IMG/VR virus record: IMGVR_UViG_2778261393_000005
Coordinates: 1 to 37,935 of that record
Origin: a virus
Taxonomy: Duplodnaviria > Heunggongvirae > Uroviricota > Caudoviricetes
Direction: 5' to 3' (one strand)
DNA: 37,935 nucleotides
In this document: piece after piece, positions 6,489-36,607 of the stretch
Numbering within the stretch: the first letter of the stretch is position 1
How the letters are laid out: each line of letters starts with the position of its first letter
Made by a program: the position numbers and the translations under genes
Notes under the pieces: generated by a model
Databases searched by the model: none
What the model was told of the DNA's origin: nothing
Seen by the model: only the letters and a program-made list of their open reading frames with translations

Positions 6489-6803
6489 TCAGAAGCTATT
6501 TGGATTGCTTGGCCATTGCGGCAATTTTGATTCTACTGGGGTGTGTTTGGGTTTGAGTCCGTTTAAGTAGTCAAGGCGCTCAATGGCGCATTTATACATA
6601 GCAATCTGCTCTGATGACATGTCGTCGTATGACATGCCTTTGAACTTTTTAATTATCGATTCTGCCTCATGTATAAGATTCTTCTTCCTCATGAGTTCAG
6701 CTGTATGCTTAGAGCTTACAGGAGATAACTTTGCCCATATGAAGCAGATGATTACAACAGCGACTACTATGCCGGGTATAAACATTTGCTGCTTTATCCT
6801 CAA
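6489..6803 (-). CDS. Small single-pass membrane protein co-transcribed with cI (candidate exclusion/immunity-region moron), 104 aa
   Basis: ATG 6803-6801 overlaps cI stop 6802-6800 (ATGA); N-terminal hydrophobic helix IPGIVVAVVIICFIWA; occupies the rexAB slot between cI and pL. Confidence 0.55.
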   Translation of the reverse strand: MRIKQQMFIPGIVVAVVIICFIWAKLSPVSSKHTAELMRKKNLIHEAESIIKKFKGMSYDDMSSEQIAMYKCAIERLDYLNGLKPKHTPVESKLPQWPSNPNSF

Positions 6804-7486
6804 ACTTTTGGCAGATCGTCCTGGTCTACGTACCTGGTGTGTTTCACAATAGCTGAAACAAAATGCATTTTATCAACTTCTTCAACAGGAAGAGTGATTG
6901 GGCGGTGATCACTGTTTATGCTACTAAACTGATAATCACCGTCTCTTGTTTTGTTCATGATCTTTATCATGTTGTGACCGTCTTTGGTCCTTACAAAGAC
7001 TTCATCACCTGGATGTACTGGCGTATTTGGTTCAATAACAACATATTCTCCTGACTGAATCCTTGGCCACATGCTGTCACCCTTAACCTTCAGACCGTAA
7101 GCATCTTTATCGCCGCTGTAGATGCTTAACCAACCGGATCTGAATTCAATCATATCCACTGAGCCATCAACTCCCAAAACGGCTTCACCAATTACCGGAA
7201 CAAAACCCGCACGAACGTTACCCGCAAACTCAAGATGGTCCGTAGCTCCAGCTTTACCATCTGCAAGCATGTCCATCCATCCGCGTGGGAGATTAAAAGA
7301 TTTTTCAATTAGTTCCATCATATCGTCAGCAATGCGTTTTTTTCCGCTTTTTCCTTCCGGATACAGCATTCTGGAAACGTATGATGGTTCCCTTTCTATT
7401 CGACGAGCCAACTCTGAGGCCTTTCCATTACAGAATCGGTCTCTTATCTCTATCAGCCTTAGTCGTCTTTGTTCGTATTTATCCAT
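6800..7486 (-). CDS. cI: CI repressor (HTH N-domain plus LexA/S24-like autocleavage domain)
   Basis: 228-aa ORF with Ala-Gly site (DGKAGATD), catalytic Ser context GDSMWP and downstream Lys; start about 20 nt from OR3; divergent from cro. Confidence 0.85.
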   Translation of the reverse strand: MDKYEQRRLRLIEIRDRFCNGKASELARRIEREPSYVSRMLYPEGKSGKKRIADDMMELIEKSFNLPRGWMDMLADGKAGATDHLEFAGNVRAGFVPVIGEAVLGVDGSVDMIEFRSGWLSIYSGDKDAYGLKVKGDSMWPRIQSGEYVVIEPNTPVHPGDEVFVRTKDGHNMIKIMNKTRDGDYQFSSINSDHRPITLPVEEVDKMHFVSAIVKHTRYVDQDDLPKV

Positions 7487-10722: not shown

Positions 10723-10751
10723 TGACCATCTACATCACTGAGCTAATAACA

Positions 10752-10781
10752 GGGGCTATTTACACAGTAGCCCTTTTTTAT
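10752..10781 (+). terminator. Rho-independent terminator after the replication genes
   Basis: GGGGCTA-loop-TAGCCC followed by TTTTTTA, about 30 nt after the helicase stop. Confidence 0.55.
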
Positions 10782-11964: not shown

Positions 11965-12137
11965 GACGACAGCGACGAAGTATCACCGACATCATCTGCG
12001 AAAACTGCAAATACCTTCCAACGAAACGCTCCAGAAATAAACGCAAGCCAATCCCAAAAGAATCTGACGTAAAAACCTTCAACTACACGGCTCACCTGTG
12101 GGATATCCGGTGGCTAAGACATCGTGCGAGGAAATGA
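11961..12137 (+). CDS. ninE: NinE protein
   Basis: [51 protein letters not shown]..., recalled as lambda NinE; ATGA overlap with the methyltransferase stop. Confidence 0.75.
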
Positions 12138-12139
12138 CA

Positions 12140-12541
12140 ATGCTTTTAATTCAACCTGGATTTGGACTTAGCATCAAAAAAGGCCACATGTTTGGCGAGA
12201 AAGAGTCACAACGAAAAATGGTGTCTATCCGGTTGCCATTTATCAGTATTTATTGGCTAAACAAGGAGGCAACAAATTATTGGTATACATGCGCCAGAGC
12301 AGCATTTAACGACCCTGACTGGTTTGTGAAAAACCACCACGCAGTTCGTCAGGCAAAGAGAAAGGCCAATACGACATACATGAAGGCGTATCGAAAAGCA
12401 TGGAAAGAACACCGCGATCGATACCAGCAAGACATGGAAAAGCTTGAATCAGAAAACATGGAATTAAGACGAAAGCTTGGTGAAGCAAAACGAGACATTG
12501 ATGCTTACAAGCGACTTTTTAATGGTGAAAGCCATGCTTAG
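12140..12541 (+). CDS. Hypothetical protein, about 133 aa (nin region)
   Basis: ATG 12140 after GAGGAA; C-terminal coiled-coil (QQDMEKLESENMELRRKLGEAKRDIDAYKRL); start uncertain. Confidence 0.4.
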   Translation: MLLIQPGFGLSIKKGHMFGEKESQRKMVSIRLPFISIYWLNKEATNYWYTCARAAFNDPDWFVKNHHAVRQAKRKANTTYMKAYRKAWKEHRDRYQQDMEKLESENMELRRKLGEAKRDIDAYKRLFNGESHA

Positions 12542-12710
12542 CCCATCCCAATCCCTTCAATACCAGAAAGAAAGCGTCGAGCGGGCTTTAACGTGCGCTA
12601 ACTGCGGTCAGAAGCTGCATGTGCTGGAAGTTCACGTGTGCGCCGATTGCTGCGCAGAACTGATGAGCGATCCGAATAGCTCAATGTACGAGGAAGAAGA
12701 CGATGAATGA
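12534..12710 (+). CDS. ninF: NinF protein
   Basis: MLSPSQSLQYQKESVERALTCANCGQKLHVLEVHVCADCCAELMSDPNSSMYEEEDDE, recalled as lambda NinF. Confidence 0.7.
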   Translation: MLSPSQSLQYQKESVERALTCANCGQKLHVLEVHVCADCCAELMSDPNSSMYEEEDDE

Positions 12711-13425
12711 GTTAATAAATGGCAATGCCATCAAAATGACAAGCATTGAAATCGCTGAGTTGGTGGGAAGTCGTCCAGATAACGTAAAAATATCAATAGA
12801 GCGCCTGGCTAAATCTGGAGTTATTCAACTTCCTGCATTGCAGGTTTTCGAAAAAATCAATAACTTAGGACTGCGCCGTAGTGTCGAGGCTTACGTCTTC
12901 GAAGGCGAACAAGGTAAGCGCGACAGCATTATTGTCGTTGCCCAGTTGTCGCCGGAATTCACCGCTCGCCTTGTTGACCGTTGGCGAGAGCTTGAAGAAG
13001 CTGCGGTTAATATCCCCAAAACGTTACCGGAAGCGTTGCGCCTTGCTGCTGATCTTGCTGAGCAGAAAATGCAACTGGAAAACCAGCTCGCAATTGCCGC
13101 ACCTAAAGTTGAGTTTGCCGATCGAGTTGGCGAGGCCAGCGGAATTTTGATTGGAAACTTTGCAAAGGTTGTTGGAATTGGTCCAAACAAACTGTTTGCG
13201 TGGATGCGCGATCACAAAATCCTTATTGCTTCAGGTTCCCGGCGCAATGTGCCAATGCAGGAATATATGGATCGCGGCTATTTCACAGTGAAAGAAACAG
13301 CGATCAACACAAATCACGGGATACAGATATCGTTCACCACAAAAATCACCGGGCGTGGTCAACAGTGGCTGACCAGAAAGCTGCTCGATAACGGAATGCT
13401 GAAAGTAACAGGGGAGGCTGCTTAA
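12703..13425 (+). CDS. Antirepressor-like protein (Rha/Ant N-terminal region plus KilA-C/ANT domain)
   Basis: 240 aa; N-terminus MTSIEIAELVGSRPDNV..., C-terminal ...FADRVGEASGILIGNFAKVVGIGPNKLFAWMRDHKIL... (KilAC-type); domain call from memory. Confidence 0.5.
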   Translation: MNELINGNAIKMTSIEIAELVGSRPDNVKISIERLAKSGVIQLPALQVFEKINNLGLRRSVEAYVFEGEQGKRDSIIVVAQLSPEFTARLVDRWRELEEAAVNIPKTLPEALRLAADLAEQKMQLENQLAIAAPKVEFADRVGEASGILIGNFAKVVGIGPNKLFAWMRDHKILIASGSRRNVPMQEYMDRGYFTVKETAINTNHGIQISFTTKITGRGQQWLTRKLLDNGMLKVTGEAA

Positions 13426-13715
13426 TGGCTAACCTACGCAAAGAAGCACGCGGCAGAGAATGCCAGGTACGTATTTACGGCGTATGCAATGGCAACCCTG
13501 AAACTACAGTTCTGGCACATTACCGGATGGCTGGAATTTGCGGAACGGGAATGAAGCCTGACGACCTGATCGGTGCATGGGCTTGTAGTGCGTGTCACGA
13601 TGAAATCGACCGACGCACCCATAATCTCGACAACAAAGACGCCAGACTTTACCACCTCGAAGGCGTGATCAGAACGCAGGCGATACTGCTGAGGGAGGGG
13701 AAGATTAAGTCATGA
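13425..13715 (+). CDS. DUF1364/YbcO-like Cys-rich protein, 96 aa
   Basis: MANLRKEARGRECQVRIYGVCNGNPETTVLAHYR...CSACHDEIDRR; TAATG overlap with upstream gene; nin-region position. Confidence 0.5.
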   Translation: MANLRKEARGRECQVRIYGVCNGNPETTVLAHYRMAGICGTGMKPDDLIGAWACSACHDEIDRRTHNLDNKDARLYHLEGVIRTQAILLREGKIKS

Positions 13716-14074: not shown

Positions 14075-14259
14075 ACGCCACAATTCAAACGATACCAGAG
14101 CTTCTTATCCAGACACGAGGCAATCAGACCGAAGTGGCGAGGATGCTTTCCTGCGCAAGAGGAACGGTGCTCAAGTACAACCGAGACAGCAAAGGCGAAC
14201 GTCACGTAATAGTTAACGGCGTCCTGATGGTCAAACAGGGCAAGAGGGGAAGACGATGA
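14071..14259 (+). CDS. ninH: NinH-like protein
   Basis: ...GNQTEVARMLSCARGTVLKY... resembles recalled lambda NinH (GNQTEVARRLKCSRGTVRKY). Confidence 0.7.
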   Translation: MNATIQTIPELLIQTRGNQTEVARMLSCARGTVLKYNRDSKGERHVIVNGVLMVKQGKRGRR

Positions 14260-14879
14260 GACTCGAAAGCGTAGCTAAATTTCATTCGCCAAAAAGCCCA
14301 ATGATGAGCGACTCACCACGGGCTACGGCTTCTGACTCTCTTTCCGGTACTGATGTGATGGCTGCTATGGGGATGGCGCAATCACAAGCCGGATTCGGTA
14401 TGGCTGCATTCTGCGGTAAGCACGAACTCAGCCAGAACGACAAACAAAAGGCTATCAACTATCTGATGCAATTTGCACACAAGGTATCGGGGAAATACCG
14501 TGGCGTGGCAAAACTCGAAGGAAATACTAAGGCAAAGGTACTGCAAGTGCTCGCAACATTCGCTTATGCGGATTATTGCCGTAGTGCCGCGACGCCGGGC
14601 GCAAGATGCAGAGATTGCCACGGTACAGGCCGTGCGGTTGATATAGCCAAAACAGAGCAGTGGGGGAGAGTTGTTGAGAAAGAGTGCGGAAGATGCAAAG
14701 GTGTCGGCTATTCAAGAATGCCAGCAAGCGCCGCATATCGCGCTGTAACGATGCTAATCCCAAACCTTACTCAACCCACCTGGTCACGCACTGTTAAGCC
14801 GCTGTATGACGCTCTGGTGGTGCAATGCCACAAAGAAGAGTCAATCGCAGACAACATTTTGAATGCGGTCACACGTTAG
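14256..14879 (+). CDS. Q: Late-gene antiterminator Q (lambda Q type)
   Basis: 207-aa ORF MRLESVAKFHSPKSPMMSDSPRATASDSLSG...CRDCHGTGR...CGRCKG; recalled as near-identical to lambda Q. Confidence 0.9.
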   Translation: MRLESVAKFHSPKSPMMSDSPRATASDSLSGTDVMAAMGMAQSQAGFGMAAFCGKHELSQNDKQKAINYLMQFAHKVSGKYRGVAKLEGNTKAKVLQVLATFAYADYCRSAATPGARCRDCHGTGRAVDIAKTEQWGRVVEKECGRCKGVGYSRMPASAAYRAVTMLIPNLTQPTWSRTVKPLYDALVVQCHKEESIADNILNAVTR

Positions 14880-14921: not shown

Positions 14922-14950
14922 TTGACTTTTTGAATAAAGTTGGGTAAATT
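14922..14950 (+). promoter_or_regulatory. Late promoter PR' (with overlapping qut region)
   Basis: -35 TTGACT (14922-14927), 17 nt, -10 TAAATT (14945-14950), as recalled for lambda PR'. Confidence 0.7.
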
Positions 14951-17126: not shown

Positions 17127-17744
17127 ATGAATCATCAATTGGCTAATCTCGATTTCCGGGACATGGTGGTTGTTTCTGGTGATCGCGTGATCACAACCTC
17201 CCGCAAGGTAGCAGCTTACTTCGACAAGCAGCATCACCACATCATTCAGAAAATCGAAAAGCTAGACTGTTCGGATGAATTTCTAACCAGCAACTTTTCG
17301 CGGGTTACCTATGAACACAAGGGTAATCAGTATGTTGAATATGAAATTTCCAAAGACGGCGCGATGTACATCATCATGTCGTTTACCGGCAAAAAAGCTG
17401 CCGCCATCAAAGAGGCGTTTATCAAAGCATTTAATTGGATGCGTGACAGGCTGATGGAGATGGCTCACTCATACCAAAGAGAGCACAACGAGTTAATGCT
17501 GGAGTTCATGAAGGAAAAGGATGTTGCCAGTATGTCAGGACGCTTGCTGAACCGCTGGGGCAGGATCAAAAAACCGCAACTCATAGCAAGAATCGAAAGG
17601 CTTGAGCAGCAGGCGCAAATATCGATCCCCGGACTGCCAAAGCGACCATTCCAAAGCCCATCTACGGGTGGGCTTGATAATGAAACCGGAATTTATTCTG
17701 GGCAACCAGTTACGGCAGTACCGCGAAACAACCCAAGCCAGTAA
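17127..17744 (+). CDS. Rha-family phage regulatory protein
   Basis: MNHQLANLDFRDMVVVSGDRVITTSRKVAAYFDKQHHHIIQKIEKLDC...YIIMSFTGKKAAAIKEAFIKAFNWM; pattern typical of Rha as recalled; ORF-track upstream extension discounted. Confidence 0.6.
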   Translation: MNHQLANLDFRDMVVVSGDRVITTSRKVAAYFDKQHHHIIQKIEKLDCSDEFLTSNFSRVTYEHKGNQYVEYEISKDGAMYIIMSFTGKKAAAIKEAFIKAFNWMRDRLMEMAHSYQREHNELMLEFMKEKDVASMSGRLLNRWGRIKKPQLIARIERLEQQAQISIPGLPKRPFQSPSTGGLDNETGIYSGQPVTAVPRNNPSQ

Positions 17745-30135: not shown

Positions 30136-32132
30136 TGGCTAAAGCATGGAAAGATGTTATCGCCTCTCCACAGTATCAGGCGTTAGCACCAGAACAAAAA
30201 GCGCAGGCTCAGGAGCAATACTTCAATGAAGTCGTTGCCCCGCAAGCTGGAGAAAATGCAGAGCAGGCCAAGCAAGCTTTCTATGCTGCCTATCCATTGC
30301 CATCTGTGCAGCCAGTGGAGACACAGCAACCAGTAGCACAGCAACAACCACAGCAAAGTGGGTTTATGTCTGATCTTGGCGAAGCAGTAAAAGAGACTGG
30401 TCGCGGACTGGTGCAGGCTGGCGTGAACGTAGCAAACATACCTGCATCAGTTGCCGATGCTGTAACAAGTGCGGCGGCATGGGCCGGCGGTAAACTCGGT
30501 ATTGGCGATGGAACATACCAACCAGCGCCACGAGTAACAACGCAGGGATTAGAGCAGGATTTTGGCCTTCAGCAAGGCGCGCTGACTCCACAAACGACAG
30601 AGGGAAGGGTATTTGCTGAAGCATTGCCTTACCTTACCCCTGCTGGCATTGAGAGAGCGGCAACACAGGCACCAACACTCGCTGGTAGAATCGCTCAGGG
30701 TGCAACTCGCCTTCTCGCTGAAAACGCAGTCGGGTCACTTGCTGCAAATAGTGCGAAAGATGATGCGGAAGCACTCGCTACCGATTTAGGCGTTGGCGTT
30801 CTGGCTGGCGGCGCTATTAACGCTGCCGGACGTGGATTAGGTGCTGCTTATCGTGGTGTTCGTGGTTCGATAGCACCAGAAGCGCAACAGGCTATCAGAT
30901 TTGCAGAGCGTGAAGGAGTTCCTCTGCACACCACAGACCTGTTACAACCCACTTCCCGCGTCGGAAAAATGGCGCAGACTACAGCAGAAAATATCCCTCT
31001 GGCTGGCACAAGCGGAATGAGAGCAACGCAACAAGAAGCGAGAAGCCAGTTGGTGCAGAGATTTGCCGATAAATTCGGTGAGTATGATCCAGCGGTTGTT
31101 ATTGACAGCCTTAAAGCGAAAACATCAGGAATTCGTCGTGCCGCCGGTAATCGACTGGAGCAGGTTCAGAATGCTATGGCTGGAGTAAACATTCAGCCTG
31201 CGCGAGCAATTCAGCAGATTGATACAGAAATATCTAACCTGCAGAAGCTTGGTAAGGTTGCTGATAACGAGACTATTTCAAAACTTCAGTCCTATCGTGA
31301 TGAGCTTGTTCGCAATGCTGGCCCTGATGGTCCGGTAAATCTGGATTTGAAGCAATTAAGCGATCTGCGCAGCCAGTTCAGAATGGACGTGAAGGGTGAG
31401 CGACCAGTGTTACCAAACCGTTCCGATGCTGCCATTCAGCGCGTTTACAAGGCAATGACTGACGATATCAATGGTGCCATTGGTCAGAATCTTGGCAACG
31501 ATACTCTCCGTAAATATCAGCAGGCCAATGCCGTCTACGCTGACGAAGCGGCAAAACTAAAGAATACCAGGCTGAAGAATGTTCTCATGAAAGGCGACCT
31601 GACGCCGGAAGTTGTCAACAACATGCTATTCAGCAAGAACAAATCGGAAATTAAGACTCTGTATAACTCAGTTGGTCGTGTTGGCAGGGCGCAAATGCGC
31701 AATGGCATCATTGGAAAGGCGATGGAGAAATCAGGTGGTTCACCTGACCAGTTCCTTCGACAGCTTAACATCCTGCAAAACCAGACTGGCATCACATTTA
31801 AAGGTCAGGATGCTGCTTATCTGAAAGGATTGAAAAACTACCTGCAATCTACGCAACAGGCTGCAAAAGCAGCAGTAACAACACCAACAGGGCAGCAAAC
31901 CATCCCGTTCATTATCGGGTATGGGACGGCAATGAACCCGGCGACAACTGGCGCAGCAGTAAGCTACGGACTTCTTACTCGCGCCTATGAGAGCGAGCCA
32001 TTCAGAAATGCAATGCTCCGAATGGCAAACACCCCACGCGGATCAACATCTTTTGAGAAAGCCATGCAGCAGGCACAAAAGGCTATTAACGCTATGGCGC
32101 AGGGGGCTAAGTCTGATGTGTTGTCAGAATAG
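30135..32132 (+). CDS. Ejection protein, P22 gp16-like
   Basis: 665 aa; last gene of the ejection-protein trio by synteny. Confidence 0.65.
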   Translation: MAKAWKDVIASPQYQALAPEQKAQAQEQYFNEVVAPQAGENAEQAKQAFYAAYPLPSVQPVETQQPVAQQQPQQSGFMSDLGEAVKETGRGLVQAGVNVANIPASVADAVTSAAAWAGGKLGIGDGTYQPAPRVTTQGLEQDFGLQQGALTPQTTEGRVFAEALPYLTPAGIERAATQAPTLAGRIAQGATRLLAENAVGSLAANSAKDDAEALATDLGVGVLAGGAINAAGRGLGAAYRGVRGSIAPEAQQAIRFAEREGVPLHTTDLLQPTSRVGKMAQTTAENIPLAGTSGMRATQQEARSQLVQRFADKFGEYDPAVVIDSLKAKTSGIRRAAGNRLEQVQNAMAGVNIQPARAIQQIDTEISNLQKLGKVADNETISKLQSYRDELVRNAGPDGPVNLDLKQLSDLRSQFRMDVKGERPVLPNRSDAAIQRVYKAMTDDINGAIGQNLGNDTLRKYQQANAVYADEAAKLKNTRLKNVLMKGDLTPEVVNNMLFSKNKSEIKTLYNSVGRVGRAQMRNGIIGKAMEKSGGSPDQFLRQLNILQNQTGITFKGQDAAYLKGLKNYLQSTQQAAKAAVTTPTGQQTIPFIIGYGTAMNPATTGAAVSYGLLTRAYESEPFRNAMLRMANTPRGSTSFEKAMQQAQKAINAMAQGAKSDVLSE

Positions 32133-32201
32133 CTTCGCAAACACCAGGAACGTGCAAAAACCAAATATGTAGAACGCAATATTCAGCATATCTCTTTGCA
32201 T
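32124..32201 (-). CDS. Candidate 25-aa hydrophobic peptide downstream of mnt
   Basis: GGAGGA then ATG (3-nt spacer) MQRDMLNIAFYIFGFCTFLVFAKLF; overlaps gp16 3' end on the opposite strand; speculative. Confidence 0.2.
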   Translation of the reverse strand: MQRDMLNIAFYIFGFCTFLVFAKLF

Positions 32202-32220
32202 AAATCCTCCGTAACTGAGG

Positions 32221-32481
32221 TTAGCTGCTGTCTTTTTTATATAGCTCCTTGAGCGTATCAAAGACAATTTTCTTAACCATATCAGATTGTTGTTCTGCCA
32301 TACGCTCTGCATCGTCAATGTAAACTGATGCAGAGCTTTGTTTAGCCAATGATTCTTCAATCGCTGCAATTATCTCTGAGTTCAGCGACCTGTTATTCAT
32401 CTTCGCGCGCTGTTTAATTTTCGCGTGGAGTTCATGCGGAAGTCTCAAGTGAAACTGCGCCTCGTCGTATTTGCTGTACAT
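32221..32481 (-). CDS. mnt: Mnt-like ribbon-helix-helix repressor (Arc/Mnt family)
   Basis: ...AQFHLRLPHELHAKIKQRAKMNNRSLNSEIIAAIEESL...DAERMAEQQSDMVKKIVFDTLKELYKK matches recalled P22 Mnt (PHFNFRMP...NGRSMNSE...DAERLADEQSELVKKMVFDTLKDLYKK); alternative upstream ATG at 32514. Confidence 0.7.
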   Translation of the reverse strand: MYSKYDEAQFHLRLPHELHAKIKQRAKMNNRSLNSEIIAAIEESLAKQSSASVYIDDAERMAEQQSDMVKKIVFDTLKELYKKDSS

Positions 32482-32602
32482 CCTTGATGCCTCACCAGTT
32501 GGGTGGAATGGCATCGTAACCTACTGGATAAATACTCAATAGTACCATTTCGGTATGCAATCACATCATGGTTGCATCATATCATTCGTCTGGAGCAATG
32601 AA

Positions 32603-34606: not shown

Positions 34607-36607
34607 CTAATTAATTACAAAGCCGTTATCATTAAGTATTTCTTTAACACCAGATTTAGATAAGTGAAAACCAACATTATATAATCCGCCGTTATGGTCA
34701 ATTATTCTACAACCATTGTCATCACATAAAGTTTTTATAGGTTTTATCTTATGCAATCCTTTCATGTCAGGAATATATTTATCTAATATATCGGATTGTT
34801 GTTTTGCTAAGTTAAGCCCATTTCTGCTGCTTGTGTATGTTGTCTCAAACTTATAATTGATAGATCTTAGTTTTGAGAATACTATGTTGGCAACATCTTC
34901 AGACGGATTAGGGGTTGGGTATACAATATATACATCATGCCCCTTGGACACGAGTTTCTTAACATTATTCGATAGAGAGATATATGCCTGCTCGCCACCT
35001 AAAAAATCTCCGCCACTAAAATTTTGCTTCGCCATCTCTAAAGGAGATGACACAGGAGCCTTAGCAAGCGGGAATTGATCATAATTAGCAGCTATAAAAA
35101 TAGTTTTCTTACCCTTAAGAGAATCAATGGCTTTCCATCTTTGCTCATTGACAACCACACATTCAGGAACATTGCCAAACCACATATCACTCACAAATGG
35201 ACATTGCTCATACGTGAGAGATAACATCCCTTTGTTATTTTCTTTTGAGTAATCTAAAATTGTTGGTGCATATTGTCCAGCATAGCTATCTCCTAATACG
35301 ATGATGTCATCACCGCCAAAGCTACACGGGTTATCAAGAGAACGTAAACCACATAAATAACTATCAGGTTCACCTCTTAAACTTTTACCAATATTTGAAT
35401 AATCTGCCAATTTCCTGAACTCTGGTTCTTTGTACATTTCATAGGTTTCTTTCAGAATGCCTGCAAGACGCCACTGAAAACCCCCATCGGCCTTTGCATA
35501 AATAGAGAAAGCAAGCAATGCTGACAGAGATGTTGCTAATACTATTGTATTCTTACTTTTAACATGTTTTGCTCTATATGGTTTTTCAATAAAAAAATAT
35601 GAAAAAGACGAAATAACAATTGAAATTGATGCTAATACTACACAGTAATAAGGAGTGATATTTTCACTAAATAATATCCTGTAAAAAACAAAAACAGGTT
35701 GATGCCATAAATATAGAGAATATGATATCAAGCCAATAAAGACAATCGGACGCAAGGATAATATTTTAGATATTAAATCGGCACCATTTGCAAATGCGAT
35801 TATCAAACATGAACCAGCTACAGGTATTAGGGTGATAAATGAAGGGTGTTTGATGTTATTTCCAAAAAACAACATTGAATAAACAATCATCAACATTCCA
35901 ATTACTGGCAGAAACGAAGTTAAAGATGATTGGTCTTTATGTATATTGCTTCTTCTTTCTTTTACAAAAAAAGACACAATTCCACCAAGAATTAATTCCC
36001 ATGCCCTTGGTAGTAGCGTATAGAATGCTAAGTCAGGGTAACTGCTAACTATAATATTTGCATACACAATAGATGAAACAGAAATCAATATAAGAAGTAA
36101 TACTCTGTATTTCTTAATAAATTTATTTATAAAAATCAATAAGAATGGATAAAATACGTAGAATTGCCATTCAACAGCAAGACTCCATGTATGAAGGAGT
36201 GGTTTAAATATACTTGCATTTGATACATAGCTATCTTCACCAAGAAAATAATAATTAGAACCAAAATAAATAGCAGAAATGAGAGATTCAGAGAATTTTA
36301 CTAAGTCATTTGGTAGAAGAATTTTATAAGCCACTATCGATGTAACTACAAGCATAGCAATAAGAGCAGGAACAATTCTCTTTATGCGTCTCCAATAGAA
36401 GTCAGTTAGTGAGAAAGAGCGGCTATCAAGTTTATTTATAATGATATCTGTAATTAAATATCCTGAAAGAACCAGGAAGACATCAACTCCAAAGAATCCG
36501 CCTTTGAATATCTTTACTCCAAACAAAGAAATGCCAGAGTGATAAATGATGACAGCCATCACTGCCAAACAACGCAATCCATCAAGCTCTTTCCTATACT
36601 TAAGCAT
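34607..36607 (-). CDS. oac: O-antigen acetyltransferase, acyltransferase-3 membrane domain fused to SGNH-type domain (Oac/OafA-like)
   Basis: 666 aa; multiple TM helices; N-terminal acyltransferase-3 pattern (RKELDGLRCLAVMAVIIYH...FFGVDVFLVLSGYLIT); C-terminal soluble region with GDSY (VLGDSYAGQY); very AT-rich. Confidence 0.75.
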   Translation of the reverse strand: MLKYRKELDGLRCLAVMAVIIYHSGISLFGVKIFKGGFFGVDVFLVLSGYLITDIIINKLDSRSFSLTDFYWRRIKRIVPALIAMLVVTSIVAYKILLPNDLVKFSESLISAIYFGSNYYFLGEDSYVSNASIFKPLLHTWSLAVEWQFYVFYPFLLIFINKFIKKYRVLLLILISVSSIVYANIIVSSYPDLAFYTLLPRAWELILGGIVSFFVKERRSNIHKDQSSLTSFLPVIGMLMIVYSMLFFGNNIKHPSFITLIPVAGSCLIIAFANGADLISKILSLRPIVFIGLISYSLYLWHQPVFVFYRILFSENITPYYCVVLASISIVISSFSYFFIEKPYRAKHVKSKNTIVLATSLSALLAFSIYAKADGGFQWRLAGILKETYEMYKEPEFRKLADYSNIGKSLRGEPDSYLCGLRSLDNPCSFGGDDIIVLGDSYAGQYAPTILDYSKENNKGMLSLTYEQCPFVSDMWFGNVPECVVVNEQRWKAIDSLKGKKTIFIAANYDQFPLAKAPVSSPLEMAKQNFSGGDFLGGEQAYISLSNNVKKLVSKGHDVYIVYPTPNPSEDVANIVFSKLRSINYKFETTYTSSRNGLNLAKQQSDILDKYIPDMKGLHKIKPIKTLCDDNGCRIIDHNGGLYNVGFHLSKSGVKEILNDNGFVIN

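Follow-up and report, generated by a model that had tools for sequence, protein, structure and literature searches.

The stretch of DNA analysed here (the window; 37,935 nucleotides, IMG/VR record IMGVR_UViG_2778261393_000005) is, overall, an Sf6/HK620-like prophage of lambdoid layout, with CI and N encoded on the minus strand and CII, a 296-residue ORF, a DnaB-type P and Q encoded on the plus strand. The 296-residue ORF has no Pfam match and occupies the position of gene O in HK620. Between the replication genes and Q lies a co-oriented reading frame, referred to below as roi, that overlaps both of its neighbours: the ATG of roi overlaps the ninF stop codon, and roi in turn ends in a stop codon that overlaps the ATG of the following gene (Table 1). 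This following gene, called YbcO by Pfam, is labelled DUF1364 by RefSeq in E. coli genomes, and the Pfam matches to NinF upstream and YbcO downstream bear out the location between ninF and a DUF1364 gene that was given in the original prediction.

The gene order of the window, P-ninB-dam-orf-ninF-roi-ybcO-rusA-ninH-Q, matches that annotated for the P22-like Lederbergvirus HK620 (ninB-ninE-ninF-roi-HkbD-rus-ninH-Q) except for an inserted dam gene and a 147-residue ORF upstream of ninF. Since roi is flanked by a tR2-like terminator on one side and a PR'-like promoter on the other, it falls inside the rightward delayed-early operon; the early-right (PR) placement proposed for it, at a distance from the tailspike-proximal mnt gene, is borne out by its orientation and by its position between the replication genes and Q.

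Table 1. Positions of the genes and sequence elements discussed in the text (numbering of the window)
Feature	Coordinates	Strand	Basis and remarks
CI repressor, Peptidase_S24 domain	6800–7486	-	Pfam
tR2-like terminator, upstream of the nin region	10751–10775	+	Terminator/promoter scan; HK620 tR2 annotated at the equivalent place
ninF	12588–12710	+	Pfam NinF (PF05810), E 5.8e-13; start at 12588 estimated, mechanical ORF 12477–12710
roi	12703–13425	+	ORF with ATG start, 240 codons (240 residues) and TAA stop
Perfect 13-bp palindrome, CCTGCATTGCAGG	12832–12844	.	Candidate Roi operator; core of a looser dyad, 12818–12858
IHF core consensus WATCAANNNNTTR, exact match (AATCAATAACTTA)	12855–12867	+	Predicted site; preceded by an A/T tract
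ybcO/hkbD (DUF1364)	13425–13715	+	Pfam YbcO (PF07102), E 2.9e-44; HkbD of HK620 in the same position
Q	14256–14879	+	Pfam
PR'-like promoter	14922–14950		Terminator/promoter scan
rha orthologue	17127–17744	+	Pfam Phage_pRha, E 1.6e-23, and ORF11CD3, E 1.3e-23; NCBIfam TIGR02681
mnt-like repressor gene, alone in the 'ant moron'	32221–32514	-	Pfam Arc and Repressor_Mnt

The C-terminal part of the roi product matches the Pfam family ANT/KilAC (PF03374) over residues 126–228 with an E-value of 6.9e-33 (113.7 bits, against a cut-off of 25.3), which agrees with the 240-residue protein carrying a C-terminal KilA-C/ANT-type domain that had been predicted. The N-terminal part matches Phage_pRha over residues 12–99 (E 5e-4) with 21.0 bits, below the cut-off of 29.9. 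Roi of HK022 is likewise below this cut-off, with 25.2 bits, and precomputed PF09669 matches are present in many Roi relatives at 88–94% identity. The domain search thus supports the ANT/KilAC assignment well above the threshold, while the Rha domain of the same protein is found only at a sub-threshold score. PHROG 63, which bears the label 'anti-repressor Ant', matches the protein over its whole length (E 4e-97). Taken together, the Roi protein appears to consist of a Rha-type N-terminal domain, weakly but consistently detected, and a KilAC domain at the C-terminus that is closely related to its counterpart in P1 Ant1/Ant2.

An AlphaFold2 model of Roi calculated from 21 close homologues has a mean pLDDT of 40.6 and a pTM of 0.32 and supports the fold of neither domain; this poor result is attributed to the shallow alignment, in which no listed homologue is less than 88% identical. 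A search of the PDB with the Roi sequence identified no relative (best E 0.37), NCBIfam contains no model for Roi, and PADLOC matched none of Roi, Rha and their neighbours to a defence system.

Identity and distribution of roi

The reading frame is very probably roi, a known accessory gene of nin regions in lambdoid phages, at its customary site. Its product is identical to Roi of HK022 (ORF 34655–35377) at 217 of 240 positions (90%) over the full length (E 7e-161) and shares 91% identity with the protein annotated as Roi in HK620; the HK022 ORF lies between P and Q and gives the same two Pfam matches. A DNA search of a phage collection with roi returned 219 records with near-identical DNA, in which the gene is labelled 'roi', 'DNA-binding protein Roi' or, in re-annotated RefSeq copies, 'anti-repressor Ant'. 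The roi-bearing phages among these matches include HK97, HK620, HK633, HK140, CUS-3, Kapi1, phages of the H19B type and many Stx phages. In addition to the sequence identity over 240 residues, the window shares with the HK022 and HK620 type the two-domain layout, the position after ninF and before hkbD/ybcO or ninG, and an intragenic IHF core at nucleotide 153 of the gene. The difference lies in residues ∼22 to 65, where the window protein is a mosaic variant, here termed type A (...SGVIQLPALQVFEKINNLGLRRSVEA); HK022 and HK620 Roi are other variants in this segment, each with its own palindrome sequence.

Among complete E. coli genomes, 1046 of 5426 carry near-identical roi DNA; the neighbours in the E. 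coli matches listed are NinF and DUF1364. A first scan of IMG/VR identified 553 stretches that encode a Roi relative, and a second scan, seeded with a diverse alignment, gave at least 596 matches. In the 160 IMG/VR loci that were fetched, the gene immediately upstream is ninF in 125 and the downstream gene is ybcO in 134 or ninG in 23; at least 19 of the 160 have exactly the gene order of the window. The homologous protein clusters number more than 7000, and the C-terminal KilAC domain is almost invariant across hundreds of phages. More distant homologues occur in Edwardsiella phage Edno5 (59% identical) and Vibrio phage VPBES (50%), both between replication genes and Q or a resolvase gene. 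Found in roughly one-fifth of the complete E. coli genomes and in many Stx phages, roi is very widespread.

In the records of CUS-3 and Kapi1 roi also adjoins ninF, whereas P22 and Sf6 are without roi and ninF is followed directly by ninG. The presence of roi in HK620, CUS-3, Kapi1 and this prophage and its absence from P22 and Sf6 mark it as a mosaic accessory gene. The suggestion that the locus represents an unusual wiring for a P22-like phage is therefore not sustained, as HK620, CUS-3 and Kapi1 all carry roi beside ninF.

Relation to P22 Ant, mnt and Rha

The original prediction regarded the ANT/KilAC protein as an antirepressor relocated to the nin region from the site beside the tailspike. 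The part of this proposal that concerns the tailspike site is correct, in that only mnt is retained there: a gene with Arc and Repressor_Mnt matches stands alone, and with the tailspike ORF starting at 32555 its start codon is only ∼40 nt away, which leaves no room for arc or ant. A tblastn search of the whole window detected no P22-Ant-like sequence. DNA of the same mnt-only site is also found in phages IME10 and Sf101, and mnt-only 'ant morons' are known from the P22-like ST64T, ST104 and Para1 (PMC2629481). The moron lies 19 kb from roi, which belongs to the PR operon, and its mnt-only state is independent of roi.

The relocation itself can be rejected: the gene is roi in its normal place, and P22 Ant is a member of a different protein family. 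The only Pfam matches of P22 Ant are P22_AR_N and P22_AR_C (PF10547 and PF10548), with no KilAC or Rha domain, whereas window Roi has the Rha-like and KilAC domains and matches neither P22 family; the best BLASTP alignment between the two proteins scores 25 bits over 37 residues, which is not significant. As P22 Ant is not homologous to Roi, it cannot be the source of a relocation. Moreover, in 32 of the 160 viral contigs the gene immediately preceding roi is a P22-type ant, which ends ∼80 nt before it; over the 104 C-terminal residues of P22 Ant, the products of these nin-region ant genes reach identities of up to 91%. This side-by-side occurrence shows ant and roi to be distinct, coexisting genes, so that domains, sequence and co-occurrence all exclude a relocated P22 Ant. 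The arrangement is known from the Stx phage Phi24B, in which ant, an enhancer of lytic induction, adjoins roi and Roi is encoded by a separate downstream gene (PMC3430580, PMC3064807).

What P22 Ant and Roi have in common is the database label 'antirepressor' and their occurrence in P22-like or lambdoid phages; their settings differ, P22 ant being in a late-operon 'ant moron' under Mnt, Arc and sar and roi in the PR nin region. The 'antirepressor' label on roi stems from the naming of the domain family, and annotations such as 'ANT/KilAC' and 'anti-repressor Ant' should not be equated with homology to P22 Ant.

A second Rha-family gene had also been noted, and both Phage_pRha and ORF11CD3 are indeed found in its product (Table 1). 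This gene is flanked by the lysis genes and by the genes that precede the small terminase; its product is 45% identical to P22 Rha and has both of the P22 Rha domains, and the gene likewise follows Rz. By domains and position it is the orthologue of P22 rha in the usual place, separate from roi. Roi itself shows a short similarity to P22 Rha (29% over 51 residues by BLASTP, E 4e-4) that includes the motif EKINNLG. Roi and the Rha proteins of P22 and phi80 thus share a weakly similar N-terminal domain and, in the case of P22 rha, an identical 13-nt IHF core on the homologous EKINNLG codons; they differ in that Rha carries ORF11CD3 instead of KilAC and maps between the lysis genes and the terminase region. 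Both roi and rha were defined through the inhibition of phage growth when the host lacks IHF (PMC4936722, PMC3430580).

A palindrome and an IHF core within the roi reading frame

Two inverted repeats are present in the interval 12650–13450, and the one listed first, with the longest arms (20 nt, 70% complementarity), contains a perfect palindrome situated 10 nt upstream of an exact IHF core (Table 1). Palindromy is kept with other sequences in other roi variants, namely CCTCAAATTGAGG, which in one variant is lengthened to a 17-mer, ATCCTCAAATTGAGGAT, TCCTGCAATGCAGGA and, in the Vibrio homologue, CTCCAATGGAG; the palindrome of HK022 roi is CTGCATTGCAG. These changes of palindrome sequence between variants also alter amino acids. 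In comparison with synonymous-codon resampling, the palindrome arm length has P-values of 0.004–0.05 in six of the nine variants, and the looser 20-nt arms give 0.002–0.07. The outer 14 positions of the dyad taken alone are marginally above the resampled controls (P 0.03–0.33), and thus only the core palindrome is claimed.

Exact matches to the IHF core occur only twice in the 37.9-kb window, one of them in roi. The core is at the same position in HK620 and HK022 roi despite diverged flanks, and it is found at nucleotide 153 in 103 of 112 distinct roi sequences, where ∼6% would be expected under synonymous resampling. It is maintained by codons that are uncommon in the genes of the window (TTA, AGA and ATA). 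The palindrome is missing or imperfect in two variants (types C and D), and the IHF core is absent from type D and from the Edwardsiella and Vibrio homologues; since one or both are missing in some variants, the cis element is not universal. An explanation of the palindrome at the RNA level finds no support in Rfam, a scan of the whole window giving no match, and with its arms separated by a single nucleotide the palindrome cannot form a hairpin as drawn.

Overall, there is moderate evidence for a cis-acting element, composed of the dyad and the IHF site, inside the roi ORF. The dyad would most simply be a Roi operator that coincides with the segment encoding the variable N-terminal part of the protein. 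Work on HK022 by Clerget and Boccard in 1996 reportedly placed a Roi binding site inside roi itself, near an IHF site, with IHF stabilizing the binding; mutants able to grow on IHF-deficient hosts reportedly map in roi, and the C-terminal half of Roi was reportedly recognized to resemble P1 Ant1 and KilA. The palindrome and IHF core fit the Roi/IHF site reported inside HK022 roi. The element at 12818–12867 is a concrete target for footprinting and for mutagenesis of synonymous sites.

Possible functions of Roi

Drawing on the HK022 literature, roi would be a delayed-early gene read by N-antiterminated transcription through tR2, and its product would be a sequence-specific DNA-binding protein that binds within roi itself, adjacent to an IHF site; in the window the palindrome beside the IHF core is the best candidate for this site. 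The interaction of Roi with DNA would be modulated by IHF and, where IHF is missing, Roi activity would block lytic growth. Roi is treated as a DNA-binding protein with an IHF-linked phenotype on the strength of genetics cited in passages of PMC3430580 and PMC4587872.

The closest functional comparison for the C-terminal domain is with phage P1. Residues 59–234 of Roi are 57% identical to the C-terminal part of P1 Ant1/Ant2 over 179 residues, and everything before residue 168 of Ant1 and residue 59 of Roi is left unaligned; Pfam gives no domain other than ANT/KilAC for Ant1. According to the P1 record, Ant1 antagonizes C1 within an Ant1/Ant2/C1 complex, a predicted IHF site lies inside ant1, and KilA, another ANT/KilAC protein, is annotated as able to kill the host. 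P1 Ant1/Ant2 differ from Roi in having an unrelated N-terminal half and in their control by the C4 antisense RNA and icd in P1 immI, and P1 Ant, unlike Roi, is known to bind a repressor. The ANT/KilAC assignment is nevertheless sound and leaves room for a protein–protein function of Roi; because the domain is also present in P1 KilA, it does not by itself imply repressor binding.

DNA binding and a protein–protein function could be combined, such that the roi codons for the variable DNA-binding part carry their own operator (the palindrome and IHF site) and the KilAC domain acts on a host or prophage protein such as a repressor or RecA. This composite arrangement is unlikely as a whole. If it held, the operator and the recognition module would behave as a single mosaic unit in both inheritance and change, and Roi would be a PR-driven, IHF-gated switch that reinforces induction or provides cross-talk.

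It is improbable that Roi is a working antirepressor whose KilAC domain binds the CI-type repressor of its own phage or of a co-resident prophage. Roi made from PR after derepression would in that case lock in induction or cross-induce neighbours rather than start induction. The ANT/KilAC match (E 7e-33) and the PHROG label could be read in this sense, as could the similarity to P1 Ant1, a genuine C1 antagonist; the N-terminal part of Ant1 is, however, not common to Roi, and P1 C1 is not known to be related to lambdoid CI. The nin-region Ant of Phi24B does promote efficient induction (PMC3064807), although it is a P22-type protein, and the retention of an adjoining roi by phages with a P22-type ant argues for different jobs of the two genes. 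The CI of the window carries the S24 self-cleavage domain, so that RecA-dependent induction would not need an antirepressor. Our searches turned up no Roi reported to act as an antirepressor, and the Roi genetics as cited in the passages of PMC3430580 and PMC4587872 point instead to DNA binding. The ANT/KilAC domain, which KilA shares, has an exact function that is still unclear according to a study of Listeria (PMC9043618).

The same study supplies a further model. For AriS of Listeria phage phi10403S, the ANT/KilAC domain by itself is enough to block the induction of SOS genes, and AriS-like proteins carry an N-terminal AntA/AntB, Bro-N or pRha domain (PMC9043618), a definition with which the architecture of Roi, pRha (sub-threshold in the window protein) followed by KilAC, agrees. 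Roi could by this likeness be a dual regulator, with the KilAC domain damping the host SOS response, probably via RecA, and the N-terminal domain regulating phage genes. Such a role is very improbable for Roi, which is likened to AriS by domain architecture: the evidence comes from Firmicute phages, where SOS inhibition is established, and from overexpression, AriS at its native level having failed to reduce SOS (PMC9043618), and there is no known connection between E. coli Roi and RecA or LexA. A function of this kind would be compatible with the DNA-binding role rather than exclusive of it.

That roi is a decaying remnant without function, to which an in-frame stop in the roi of one IMG/VR contig, the tolerance of IS629 insertions in roi by some Stx phages (PMC4587872) and the lack of the gene in Sf6 and P22 might be taken to point, has a negligible likelihood in view of an intact 240-residue frame that overlaps both neighbouring genes, a near-invariant C-terminal domain and the thousands of homologues described above.

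A candidate cis element within roi

The candidate cis element in roi (see table) combines a palindrome with a core match for integration host factor (IHF), and both parts can be followed among roi homologs. Palindromy is retained with an altered sequence in other roi variants, and the IHF core is present in 103 of the 112 distinct roi sequences. In variant D (viral loci L147 and L161; …GVIQLPPMQKVENKQTISPNK…), the INNLG motif and the IHF core are missing and there is no perfect palindrome; this variant is a possible natural control for the element proposed here.

Coordinates of features in the window.
Feature	Position	Strand	Remarks
Candidate cis element in roi	12818-12867		Palindrome, then A/T tract, then IHF core; from sequence
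Perfect 13-bp palindrome	12832-12844		Within roi
Exact IHF core consensus match	12855-12867		Within roi, 3' of the A/T tract
147-aa ORF	12098-12541	+	Between dam and ninF
mnt-like repressor gene and overlapping ORF	32124-32514	-	Alone, adjoining tailspike
Acyl_transf_3 + SGNH protein, 666 aa	34607-36607	-	Between tailspike and integrase

An IHF core in P22 rha and a predicted IHF site in P1 ant1

The same 13-mer as in roi, AATCAATAACTTA, occurs in phage P22 at genome positions 39835-39847, within rha, where it falls on the EKINNLG codons at a site homologous to that in roi; the P22 genome has only four exact matches to the IHF core, of which this is one. An IHF-linked growth phenotype is common to Roi and Rha (PMC4936722, PMC3430580). 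A parallel to the intragenic core of roi is found in phage P1, the record of which carries an annotated, predicted IHF-binding site at 48945-48957, within ant1 and near the start of ant2; P1 Ant1 and the C-terminal part of Roi are 57% identical.

Ant-type, mnt and other genes

A P22-Ant-type gene lies directly 5' of roi in the nin region, about 80 nt upstream, in 32 of the 160 IMG/VR loci, the same ant-roi order as in Phi24B. The encoded proteins share at most 91% identity with the C-terminal 104 residues of P22 Ant. A tblastn search of the whole window found no P22-Ant-type gene. The ORF overlapping the mnt-like gene, downstream of mnt, encodes 81 residues, and DNA of this region also occurs in phages IME10 and Sf101. 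One possible role for Mnt where ant is absent is an effect on read-through that reaches the tailspike gene.

The Acyl_transf_3 and SGNH protein probably acts in lysogenic conversion as an O-antigen acyltransferase; it is roughly twice as long as Sf6 Oac. The 147-aa ORF gave no family match other than a weak one to CagS.

Atypical roi sequences

In one viral contig (L074), codon 50 of roi is changed from GAA to TAA, an in-frame stop located in the A/T tract that separates the palindrome from the IHF core; this copy is either a pseudogene or the product of a sequencing error. Two 304-aa Roi relatives (P0016 and P0017) carry 64 extra N-terminal residues and both additionally match PF25212; these longer N-termini may represent upstream-gene fusions or mis-called starts.
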